Below, in pieces: positions 18,901 through 22,944 of a DNA stretch of 64,000 nt. The position numbers are program-made. Where the stretch lies: the NCBI RefSeq assembly GCF_056712565.1, contig NZ_CM160072.1. One strand, 5' to 3'. Position 1 is the stretch's first letter. Each line of letters starts with the position of its first letter.

Positions 18901-21900
18901 AAACAAATGAAGCTGAGCATTCTGGATAGATAATCCGAATTTTTGCATCAGATAAAAGGTGTAATAGCTGCTGATGCTCGCCATATAGAAATATTTCGAG
19001 AAAATGAGGATTAACAGAATGCTGACCGCCAGAACAACTTTATTGCGCGGCAGTGGATTGATAATCGTCGCTTTGGGTTTTCCTTTATTCATTCGGTGCT
19101 GTGCCGAGTACCAACGGCTGATTTGCGCCAACACCACGATCGCCAGCAGTGCCGCAAGCACAAACCAGGCAACGTTGCCTTTGCCATAAGGCGCGATAAT
19201 CACCGCCGCCAGCAAGGGGCCCAGGGAACTGCCAAAGTTGCCGCCGACCTGAAATATAGATTGCGCCAGGCCATGACGCCCGCCGGAAGCCATACGGGCC
19301 ACGCGAGAAGATTCCGGATGAAAGACCGATGAACCGGTACCGACCAGCGCCGCTGCCAGCAGAACTGCGCCGAAACTGCCCGCCAGCGCCAGCAGCACCA
19401 GACCACTTAAGGTAAAGCACATGCCAATCGGCAACGACCACGGCATCGGATATTTATCGGTCCAGTAGCCGACCACCGGTTGCAGTAGCGAAGAGGCGAG
19501 CTGGAAGGTGAGGGTTATCATGCCAATCTGCATAAATGTCAGAGAAAATTCTGACTGAAGCAGTGGATAAATCGCCAGAATCAGCGATTGGATCATGTCG
19601 TTCAGCAGATGTGAGAGGCTGATAGCACCTAAAATACCAAACGATGTTCGGGCCTTAGTCGTTGACGCAGCCGCGCCCGCCACAGGCTGGGTTTGTTCAC
19701 TCATTGCCATAGGAAAGTCACTTTTTCAGGGTTGCGATGTAAAGAATGATCTTATTTGTGATTATTACCCGACTAACATACCTGTATGCGCCGCCTGAAG
19801 GAAGTCTCAACGCGGAATACAGAATTTCTAATCTGGATGCAGATTTATCTTCACCGGACGCAGACTTGTCTATGATGTCGCGTCATACTATTTTTCAACA
19901 CGTTGAAATCAGGTCAGGGAGAGAAGTATGAAATTATTACAGCGGGGCGTGGCGTTAGCACTGTTAACCACATTTACACTGGCGAGTGAAACTGCTCTGG
20001 CGTACGAGCAGGATAAAACCTACAAAATTACAGTTCTGCACACCAATGATCATCATGGGCATTTTTGGCGCAATGAATATGGTGAATATGGTCTGGCGGC
20101 GCAAAAAACGCTGGTGGATGGTATCCGCAAAGAGGTTGCGGCTGAAGGCGGTAGCGTGCTGCTACTTTCCGGTGGCGACATTAACACTGGCGTGCCCGAG
20201 TCCGACTTACAGGATGCCGAACCTGATTTTCGCGGTATGAATCTGGTGGGCTATGACGCGATGGCGATCGGTAATCATGAATTTGATAACCCGCTCACCG
20301 TATTACGCCAGCAGGAAAAGTGGGCTAAGTTCCCGTTGCTTTCCGCCAATATCTACCAGAAAAGTACCGGCGAGCGCCTGTTTAAACCATGGGCGCTGTT
20401 TAAGCGTCAGGATCTGAAAATTGCCGTTATTGGCCTGACGACGGATGACACAGCCAAAATTGGTAATCCGGAATATTTCACTGATATCGAATTTCGTAAG
20501 CCCGCTGATGAAGCGAAGCTGGTGATTCAGGAGCTGCAACAGACAGAAAAGCCAGACATTATTATCGCGGCGACCTATATGGGGCATTACGACAATGGTG
20601 AGCACGGCTCTAACGCACCGGGCGATGTGGAGATGGTACGCGCGCTGCCTGCCGGATCGCTGGCGATGATCGTCGGTGGTCACTCGCAAGATCCAGTCTG
20701 TATGGCGGCAGAAAACAAAAAACAGGTCGATTACGTGCCGGGTACGCCATGCAAACCGGATCAACAAAACGGCATCTGGATTGTGCAGGCGCATGAGTGG
20801 GGCAAATACGTGGGACGGGCTGATTTTGAGTTTCGTAATGGCGAAATGAAAATGGTTAACTACCAGCTGATTCCGGTGAACCTGAAGAAGAAAGTGACCT
20901 GGGAAGACGGGAAAAGCGAGCGCGTGCTGTACACCCCTGAAATCGCTGAAAACCAGCAAATGATCTCGCTGTTATCACCGTTCCAGAACAAAGGCAAAGC
21001 GCAGCTGGAAGTGAAAATAGGCGAAACCAATGGTCGTCTGGAAGGCGATCGTGACAAAGTACGTTTTGTACAGACCAATATGGGGCGGTTGATTCTGGCA
21101 GCACAAATGGATCGCACTGGTGCCGACTTTGCGGTGATGAGCGGAGGCGGAATTCGTGATTCTATCGAAGCAGGTGATATCAGCTATAAAAACGTACTGA
21201 AAGTGCAGCCATTCGGCAATGTGGTGGTGTATGCCGACATGACCGGTAAAGAGGTGATTGATTACTTGACCGCCGTCGCGCAGATGAAGCCAGATTCAGG
21301 TGCCTACCCGCAATTTGCCAACGTTAGCTTTGTGGCGAAAGACGGTAAACTGAACGACCTGAAAATCAAAGGCGAACCGGTCGATCCGGCGAAAACTTAC
21401 CGCATGGCGACATTAAACTTCAATGCCACCGGCGGGGATGGCTATCCGCGCCTTGATAACAAACCGGGCTATGTGAATACCGGCTTTATTGATGCCGAAG
21501 TGCTGAAAGCGTATATACAGAAAAGCTCGCCGCTGGATGTGAGTGTTTATGAACCGAAAGGTGAGGTGAGCTGGCAGTAATGAACCCCGTCGCGGCGTCA
21601 TGATATGACGCCGCCATTTATGAATATTGAAATCTTGCATCGTAATCGCGATGTGTCAAACCAAATGCCATCAGCATATAATTCTGCGGATCACCAGGCT
21701 GTTCTTCATCTGCTTCAAACCAAAGTGTCACGCCTGAGCGATTGACGTGGATTAAGAGTGTATGGGGCGATTGACGGCGGATTTGCAGATCAGCGCCTTC
21801 GTTAACAAGCATGTTAAATACACGCGTAACGTTCAACTCAGCGACGTTATTCAATATTCCTTTATCAAATCGGATCGCTTTGCCCAAATGGATTTGGCTC

Positions 21901-22944
21901 AGATAATCGCACCAAATCATATATAGCTTGTTGTTTTCGAAATGAAACTCAACATTACCAAATAGCCAGATATAAAAACCATTTCCCATATCATTTTTAG
22001 AGTCCGGCTCAACAAAGTTTTGTTCCAACCATGCCATTGTTTGCCCCAGTTCGACAAAATCGAATTTTCCGTTAAAGACAAAATTGTGGAAGCTAACATC
22101 AACAAGATGGTCAAATTTCATCTTTCGCTCCTTTGTGAATTTTTTACATGCTTCAAAAGCCAGCGTAATTTACATCGGTGCAGGCGACTCTCCAGTGTTG
22201 AGCGAAAATTTGCGATGTCGACATTGGACCGATCTACCGCAGCAACCCCCGTGTATTGTGGGATCGGTGAAGGGATTTTTTGTAACTTTCCCAGCGCCAG
22301 CAGTTGTTGAATGATCCTGCTACCGTCGTGGTAATCATCGTAAATAGCCACTGGCAGAGGCTGCCAGGCGGGGGTCGATTTGATAAATCCGGAAAAAAAA
22401 TACGGGTCCAGATCGCCGAAAGCAAAGCCGTAGGCGAGGGGAACTTCAATATTTTGCTCTGTTTTTTTATTCTCAAATGTACAATGAAAACCGTGAAAAC
22501 AATACTGCCACTTTCCCATTTTGCCTTTTCGCTTACGGTTGCATTTGAAGGGGGCAAAGGTAACTAGCGGGTTATTTTCCGCCATCTCAACGTTCAGTTG
22601 TTCAGCCAATGCAAATATAAGCTCTGTCGCCAGCTTACGATATTCTTTCGCGCAGTGTTCGAAAAAATCCTGATGGCGGTTAATCTCTTCAAGCGATATT
22701 AATCTGGCGATCCTGATAACCGGGTCGGCAGAATGCATGCCAACAACAAATTCATCGAGCTGTGCTTTCAGCACCAGCCCGAATTCCTCACGATACCTCT
22801 CTGCTTCGCTGGCAAAATGCAGATGTAATACCTTCTCTCTCGATGTTTGCCGAAGTAAGGCGATATCCGGTATCTCATCTGCACAAGCGATACTTAATGT
22901 CTCTGTAATCCTTTCCACATCTCATCTTCCGTGTGCATCACTTA

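Follow-up and report, generated by a model that had tools for sequence, protein, structure and literature searches.

The interval between ushA and ybaK in a stretch of Escherichia coli DNA of 64,000 nucleotides (NCBI RefSeq assembly GCF_056712565.1, contig NZ_CM160072.1; this whole stretch is called the window below) is filled by two minus-strand genes, here termed gene A and gene B. An initial annotation, made from the sequence alone, had singled them out as an uncharacterised, translationally coupled cassette and had likened them to a toxin–antitoxin (TA), abortive-infection, anti-phage or toxin–immunity pair. Our comparative analysis points to a different reading, to which we assign a probability of about 0.5: the interval holds two unrelated, self-sufficient accessory genes and not a two-component system. 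Members of each family stand alone, in shifting neighbourhoods and in several phyla, and the pairing of A with B, together with its ATGA coupling, is confined to Escherichia.

Two intact genes in the ushA–ybaK interval

The queried 1.7 kb is a 100% match to the E. coli type strain, ATCC 11775 (DSM 30083). Gene A (22118..22918, minus strand) encodes 266 amino acids from a GTG start at 22918 and corresponds to WP_000439796.1, and gene B (21618..22121, minus strand) encodes 167 amino acids and corresponds to WP_000667000.1. Both open reading frames (ORFs) were placed correctly by the initial annotation and are the same as the coding sequences in RefSeq, where they are labelled 'DUF6896 domain-containing protein' and 'hypothetical protein', respectively. 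The GTG start of gene A is supported by this agreement and by homologs from other phyla, which start at the aligned position with N-termini of the type MERITE or MKRT.E. The two genes overlap as ATGA at 22118..22121, the stop codon TGA of gene A lying at 22120-22118 and the start codon ATG of gene B at 22121-22119, and the AAGGAG Shine–Dalgarno sequence of gene B lies within gene A (22128..22133, minus strand), 6 nt ahead of the ATG; both features, as first noticed, are read directly from the DNA.

In K-12, the gap between ushA and ybaK measures only 36 nt and holds a single hairpin, so the roughly 1.3 kb described as extra in this strain is indeed extra. The cassette is also AT-richer than its flanks, with a GC content of 39.9% for gene B and 46.1% for gene A against 50-54% for fsr, ushA, ybaK and ybaP, and is thus compositionally foreign. 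Neither predicted protein contains a hydrophobic stretch of membrane-span length (top Kyte–Doolittle 19-residue means of 1.05 for A and 0.85 for B), in agreement with the earlier view that neither has an obvious transmembrane segment. That both genes are uncharacterised also held: gene A belongs to DUF6896, a family without known function, and gene B has no library match.

A presence/absence survey across E. coli, which the initial annotation had suggested, found the cassette in 774 of 5426 complete genomes (14%), including sequence type 131 (ST131) strains such as JJ1887. Every one of the 774 copies is whole, full length, single-copy and chromosomal, and none is plasmid-borne; 769 are at least 99% identical. 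No diverged remnant of the cassette was found in the remaining E. coli genomes by blastn, at a sensitivity of 65-70%. The cassette is an all-or-none chromosomal polymorphism in E. coli.

Two other Escherichia lineages carry the cassette at this position as well. In the sister lineage (loci L046-L049), identity to the window is 89-94% for the flanks and 96-97% for the cassette, and the ATGA overlap is kept. In a more distant lineage (L007/L008), ybaK is 88% identical and the cassette 87-90%, and the overlap is replaced by a 21-nt gap, since gene A stops earlier and is shortened. A protein of E. fergusonii (UniProt B7LJF0) is 98% identical to gene A. In comparison with the two lineages (L046-L049 and L007), the ratio of nonsynonymous to synonymous substitution rates (dN/dS, omega) is 0.12-0.14 for gene B; it is 0.31-0.68 for gene A and 0.02-0.04 for the genes on either side. 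These ratios, and the full length of all 774 copies, mark A and B as real genes, and both are intact, coding and under purifying selection.

These data bear directly on the idea that the cassette is a functionless remnant, surviving in some lineages only for lack of deletion so far. Its dispensability in 86% of E. coli would fit, as would the upper omega of gene A (0.68), the frameshifting of the gene A C-terminal tail between lineages and, in L007, the shortened gene A with its lost coupling. Set against this, both ORFs are intact and full length across 774 genomes and three Escherichia lineages, the omega of gene B is low, and gene A keeps 25 invariant columns across phyla; we regard decay as the least probable of the explanations weighed here.

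Synonymous divergence (dS) between L046-L049 and window positions 18490-24419 is 0.07-0.11 for the cassette, and 0.34, 0.26, 0.62 and 0.53 for ybaK, ybaP, ushA and fsr, respectively. Because the value for the cassette is several-fold below those of its flanks, it suggests a recent recombination tract centred on the cassette, in which this segment alone would have been exchanged between Escherichia lineages.

Each family stands alone outside Escherichia

Pairing was assessed by seeking gene A relatives within 8 kb of 31 gene B homologs found in a genome scan, and by inspecting 80 metagenomic gene A loci. No gene A relative was found within that distance of any gene B homolog (0/31), and the 80 metagenomic loci yielded one weak match to the gene B family (E-value 2.4e-7), 2.5 kb away. 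Near the gene A homologs at loci L003-L005 no gene B-family ORF was found, and gene A homologs are likewise without gene B nearby in Leminorella, Flavobacterium, Chitinophaga and two other Enterobacteriaceae lineages. A gene B homolog with 65% identity is found behind an ABC transporter operon and has no gene A with it. The two proteins were also considered as possible relatives of one another, through a shared W.Y..FHF-like hairpin, and this was rejected (hhalign probability 0.2%).

An all-against-all comparison of neighbours gave no conserved neighbour across genera for either gene B or gene A. Pfam scans covered 139 same-strand and 60 small neighbours of the gene B homologs, and the neighbours of the metagenomic gene A loci were compared by clustering. 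Among these 139 and 60 neighbours no toxin or immunity Pfam family recurred and there was no toxin or defence enrichment; they form a mix of housekeeping and accessory genes (ClpB in Neisseria, GalT, MenD, LysR, sigma-54 activators, ABM, HU and FolB), with one Barstar, one PIN and one AbiEii domain among them. By NCBIfam, the upstream neighbours include GalT, MenD, a muramidase and a tyrosine recombinase. Many gene B homologs lie in runs of small ORFs, yet the Pfam scans show no enrichment, and a placement of the family in immunity islands was not retained.

Two sets of loci illustrate the range of these settings. In Neisseria perflava, N. iguanae and N. weixii (L024, L025 and L028), clpB is closely followed by the gene B homolog, which in N. 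elongata comes after galT, so that the same family is found at different housekeeping junctions within one genus. In a metagenome-assembled genome of Flavihumibacter (L022, 6693-8528), the homolog comes right after a tyrosine recombinase and is followed by small ORFs; the best models for the recombinase are XerA and integron-integrase, both below their cut-offs, and the locus may be a cassette array.

Searches for a defence or toxin–antitoxin system

The suggested TA, abortive-infection, anti-phage or toxin–immunity pair found no support in the comparative tests. PADLOC-DB v2.0.0 returned 0 families at E <= 1 for the two proteins and ten diverse homologs, so the proposed PADLOC scan for a defence match came back empty, and neither NCBIfam nor PHROG gave a match for either protein or ten diverse relatives. 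No relative of gene A or B was found in 50,697 phage genomes or in IMG/VR contigs; on plasmids, distant relatives of each occur only on Cytophagales megaplasmids, with unremarkable neighbours. The locus itself, flanked by ushA and ybaK, has no mobility genes and no defence-island context. By these homology and context tests, genes A and B match neither a known type II TA system nor a known anti-phage system.

A novel two-gene module of this kind, with the basic protein A (isoelectric point, pI, 8.2) as effector and the smaller, acidic protein B (pI 5.1) as its neutraliser or sensor, would share several traits with type II TA systems: two small, adjacent genes of low GC in a core-genome gap, joined by an ATGA overlap with a strong Shine–Dalgarno sequence, one product basic and one acidic. 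The presence/absence polymorphism in E. coli and the raised omega of gene A would fit as well, and the region does harbour small modules, as shown by a genuine HigB/HigA-type pair at a distance of 1.6 kb. Unlike type II TA systems, however, A and B have no TA homology and no own promoter signal, and Pfam detects no DNA-binding antitoxin domain. Their families are found apart elsewhere, each alone in other genomes, and gene A occurs with no candidate neutraliser in Leminorella and in one of the other Enterobacteriaceae lineages (L050). The absence of matches in the defence, TA and phage libraries, the housekeeping flanks and the absence from phages and viral contigs argue in the same direction, and the cassette does not vary and is never truncated in the 774 genomes, in contrast to the patchy turnover typical of defence islands. 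We therefore consider such a module improbable.

Gene A: a DUF6896 protein with two added parts

Gene A matches the Pfam family DUF6896 (PF21837) with an E-value of 1.5e-13 over residues 87-215 (model positions 2-119 of 128), and PF21837 is carried by all 32 aligned gene A homologs having precomputed annotation. Full-length relatives with 38-59% identity occur in Leminorella, other Enterobacterales and many Bacteroidota, among them Flavobacterium, Chryseobacterium, Chitinophaga, Aquimarina and Mucilaginibacter. An AlphaFold model built from a 32-sequence alignment is confident (mean predicted local distance difference test, pLDDT, 88.5) and superposes on the AlphaFold models of DUF6896 proteins from Flavobacterium and Chryseobacterium with a template modelling (TM) score of 0.85; as modelled, gene A shares its fold with other DUF6896 members, in keeping with its RefSeq name. 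A PDB sequence-profile search with gene A gave no match, and a literature search on DUF6896 function or the ushA/ybaK island found no relevant paper.

Many DUF6896 members consist of the core of about 130 residues alone. Gene A belongs to a subfamily of about 260 residues, which differs from them in adding an N-terminal domain and a C-terminal helix to that core. Residues 1-80 are predicted to resemble the alpha/beta fold of IF3-C, YhbY, SepF, TusA, Smr and CRM; the DUF6896 core spans residues ~83-230, the predicted C-terminal part giving weak winged-helix-like matches; and residues ~235-266 would form a cationic amphipathic helix. The core also turns up as the C-terminal third of a 578-residue ORF (L128, 938-2671), which is either a domain fusion or an artefact of ORF calling.

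The signature of the family is a beta-hairpin, W-x-[YF]-x-F-H-G-x-H-C-x-F-x-N..T.Q.IEV, followed by FG.LDPYFF. A Cys/His cluster had been pointed out in this protein, and it stands in part: W137, H142, G143 and H145 are the same in all 32 homologs, C146 and C89 in nearly all, and the other two cysteines quoted with the cluster are not conserved. A four-ligand zinc site formed by C89, H142, H145 and C146 was considered as a family feature and rejected, because H145 and C89 are replaced in distant Cytophagales relatives (Fulvitalea and Flammeovirga), and no fixed four-ligand metal site is claimed.

The last 10-20 residues of the subfamily are cationic and amphipathic (for example WKRWFKRK, FAGLLKRL and LKFLKLKK), with a median hydrophobic moment over the 32 homologs of 0.57, at the 94th percentile of their own windows, and a net charge of +3. 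MinD and FtsA carry C-terminal amphipathic helices that target them to the membrane, and the gene A homologs resemble them in ending with short segments of Lys or Arg and Trp, Phe or Leu with a high hydrophobic moment. By this analogy we infer that gene A may bind the membrane peripherally. The likeness is one of sequence pattern only, with no homology found, and the tail of the E. coli protein is longer and is frameshifted between lineages.

Gene B: a sizeable family without a name

Gene B has no match in Pfam, NCBIfam, PADLOC or PHROG, and a profile of the 31-sequence family has none in the PDB. A profile of 3 sequences did give weak partial PDB matches to designed ankyrin repeats (E-values 0.02-1.5), and this likeness was judged spurious. 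Word-indexed searching recovered near-identical proteins and a single one at 65% identity, and with the gene B alignment only 17 proteins. An exhaustive HMMER search of 1.84 billion representatives returned 320 clusters at E <= 1e-3 and 135 at E <= 1e-10, counted at 50% identity, and mostly stand-alone proteins of 150-180 residues. The 31 homologs of the genome scan come from Listeria, Paenibacillus, four Neisseria species, Moraxella, Alysiella, Capnocytophaga, Bacteroides, Dysgonomonas, Myxococcales, Verrucomicrobia and others.

Conservation is centred on the N-terminal half, with the pattern G-K-F-D..G.TK.W...F..PD...IW.YG.iEFHF...L..I..D, and nearly all conserved columns are hydrophobic or Gly/Pro. 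The family is acidic (median pI 5.0), as is gene B itself.

When 31 and a further 15 family members were compared with Pfam one by one, the only significant match was to DUF4240, in one fusion protein. This protein (P0071, 330 residues) carries DUF4240 at residues 3-83 (E-value 3.9e-7) fused to a gene B-like domain at residues 165-327, and in two others (P0215 and P0224) the gene B-like part bears a different, unannotated N-terminal extension. A supposed fusion of gene B to a toxin at locus L031 was set aside, since the long ORF is probably an ORF-caller artefact on a GC-rich contig and has no NCBIfam match.

The features of the two families invite comparison with the orphan immunity proteins of polymorphic toxin systems, such as the SUKH and Imm families, which are small cytoplasmic proteins with patchy spread and variable neighbourhoods. 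Under this explanation, A and B would each neutralise, by binding, an incoming interbacterial toxin of the contact-dependent, type VI secretion or bacteriocin type whose gene is absent. Both are single-gene families of small cytoplasmic proteins with a patchy spread; gene B in particular is acidic, with few conserved polar residues and only structural ones kept, and many of its homologs lie in runs of small same-strand ORFs. The spread of the two families over distant phyla (Listeria, Paenibacillus, Neisseria, Moraxella, Bacteroidota, Myxococcota and Verrucomicrobiota for B; Enterobacteriaceae and Bacteroidota for A), the raised omega of gene A and the recent exchange of the cassette between lineages would all be in character. 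However, neither gene A nor gene B has an Imm or SUKH match in Pfam, and no toxin gene lies beside any family member examined. No polymorphic-toxin or Imm/SUKH family recurs among the 139 and 60 neighbours, which include one Barstar only, and no large toxin-like gene is a conserved upstream neighbour, that position being taken often by clpB, galT or menD. The invariant His/Cys motif of gene A and its long-kept position behind ybaK are also at odds with such a role. Orphan immunity is thus a possible, if doubtful, account of the two genes.

Position behind ybaK and transcription

The upstream gene, ybaK (22942..23421, minus strand), encodes a Cys-tRNA(Pro)/Cys-tRNA(Cys) deacylase. Gene A begins 23 nt past the ybaK stop, as first described, the stop codon ending at 22942. 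On the other side, ushA (19928-21580, plus strand) converges on the two genes.

Gene A homologs adjoin ybaK, without gene B, in two further Enterobacteriaceae lineages, at distances of 30 nt and 12 nt. In L050 (2293-3585), the DUF6896 gene lies directly 3' of ybaK (amino acid identity 92% for YbaK and 56% for A) and is followed by a palindrome resembling repetitive extragenic palindromic elements. In L051 (4509-5729) and L052 (549-1769) it lies directly 3' of ybaK as well (87-88% for YbaK and UshA, 46-50% for A), with an insertion sequence (IS) 605-family tnpB upstream of ybaK and a pseudouridine synthase after gene A. The neighbours other than ybaK differ between L050 and L051/L052. On this evidence gene A is a long-standing 3' passenger of ybaK within the Enterobacteriaceae.

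The description of the cassette as 'inserted' therefore probably has the wrong polarity, since the same site is occupied in at least two other Escherichia lineages and gene A follows ybaK in two further genera. With the cassette in three Escherichia lineages and gene A after ybaK in two others, the empty site of K-12 looks like a loss. We infer that the Escherichia ancestor carried the cassette and that most E. coli lineages, including K-12, later lost it, and the cassette was probably also exchanged between Escherichia lineages more recently.

The conserved position raises the question of whether gene A works with YbaK, or with RNA or translation in general, for example in membrane-tethered tRNA editing, with gene B as a later add-on. 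That gene A lies 12-30 nt after ybaK in three Enterobacteriaceae lineages despite differing other neighbours speaks for such a role, as does the pseudouridine synthase that comes next in L051/L052. Yet no ybaK relative was found near gene A in the 80 metagenomic loci or in the Bacteroidota and Leminorella genomes, so that the link may be historical and not functional. Common descent within a single family could account for the adjacency, and most E. coli do without gene A. A role tied to YbaK is accordingly quite unlikely.

The 23-nt spacer between the ybaK stop and the GTG of gene A (22919..22941, minus strand) holds no terminator-like and no promoter-like site, and promoter-like counts across the region are not above those of shuffled sequences, although a consensus scan could miss a promoter inside ybaK. 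Between the convergent stops of ushA and gene B lies a perfect 10-bp, GC-rich hairpin (21592..21614), with folding energies of -18.6 and -18.5 kcal/mol on the two strands (z -3.6 and -3.2). It is likely a two-way transcription stop that replaces a different hairpin in K-12 (-19.3 kcal/mol). Given the lack of promoter or terminator signals in the spacer and the hairpin after gene B, genes A and B are most likely carried on a single ybaK-A-B transcript.

Other features near the cassette

Between ybaK and ybaP, the small RNA sroB (ChiX/MicM) lies at window positions 23543-23626 on the plus strand (Rfam RF00368, 82 bits, gathering score 44), a known feature at its usual place. A RelE/ParE (HigB-like) toxin gene lies at ~24552-24854 (plus strand), directly upstream of ybaQ/higA (24890-25231, plus strand, from RefSeq), and the HigB-like/YbaQ pair is the one 1.6 kb from the cassette referred to above. 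K-12 has ybaQ alone, just 137 nt after ybaP, and the sister Escherichia lineage (L046-L049) has neither the HigB-like gene nor ybaQ. With the toxin gene present here and ybaQ alone in K-12, YbaQ of K-12 looks like an orphan antitoxin.

Discussion

In our reading, genes A and B are two accessory genes that are self-sufficient and unrelated to each other. As to what they do, we give the largest share of the weight to some other, as yet unknown physiology, a smaller though substantial share to stand-alone binding or immunity-like roles, a slim one to a true A-B pair and a slightly slimmer one still to an RNA or translation role linked to ybaK. Among defined mechanisms, it is most plausible, with low confidence, that each acts alone as a protective, binding or immunity-like factor. 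Gene A may be a peripheral inner-membrane protein held by its cationic amphipathic C-terminal helix, in which an IF3-C-like domain is joined to the DUF6896 core and the His/Cys beta-hairpin would serve as a binding or catalytic pocket; gene B, in which no catalytic residue is conserved, may be a soluble and acidic protein that acts by binding. Both of these assignments are tentative. The two genes would have no promoter of their own and would be read through from ybaK, transcription ending at the hairpin shared with ushA.

Several points weigh against this picture. Gene neighbourhoods lend the immunity-like guess no positive support, and the conservation of gene A, with its invariant His and His and near-invariant Cys at 38-59% identity between Enterobacteriaceae and Bacteroidota, looks more like that of an enzyme than of an immunity protein. 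In each enterobacterial lineage the GC content of gene A is some 10 points lower than that of its flanks, a poor fit with long residence behind ybaK. Co-transcription with ybaK is only the simplest reading of the spacing and the lack of signals. The structure model of gene B, built from 3 sequences, has a pLDDT of 41 and is unusable. Finally, coupling as tight as this, by an ATGA overlap and a strong Shine–Dalgarno sequence, typically joins genes for cooperating proteins, and two Escherichia lineages retain it, so a lineage-specific functional pairing is possible.

Such a pairing might have arisen if Escherichia had welded two once-independent proteins into a new unit, in which a membrane-tethered DUF6896 effector with a His/Cys pocket is controlled by, or acts with, the acidic gene B protein; we hold this to be unlikely. 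It is to the same low degree credible that the pair, expressed from the ybaK transcript, would give the B2 lineage rich in extraintestinal pathogenic E. coli (ExPEC), which includes ST131, a function in defence, stress or translation quality unlike that of any described system.

As a finding, the cassette itself matters little, since it consists of two conserved hypothetical genes already in RefSeq. It does show that tight coupling and low GC in a core-genome gap are not enough to call a defence or TA module. Gene B marks a sizeable, multi-phylum family (about 320 clusters) without a Pfam entry, and the adjacency of ybaK and DUF6896 in three Enterobacteriaceae lineages is a concrete starting point for a domain whose function has yet to be assigned. 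Within a clinically important part of E. coli, to which ST131 and the type strain belong, the cassette is fixed and does not vary, and K-12 lacks it; any phenotype that it confers would therefore be lineage-specific.

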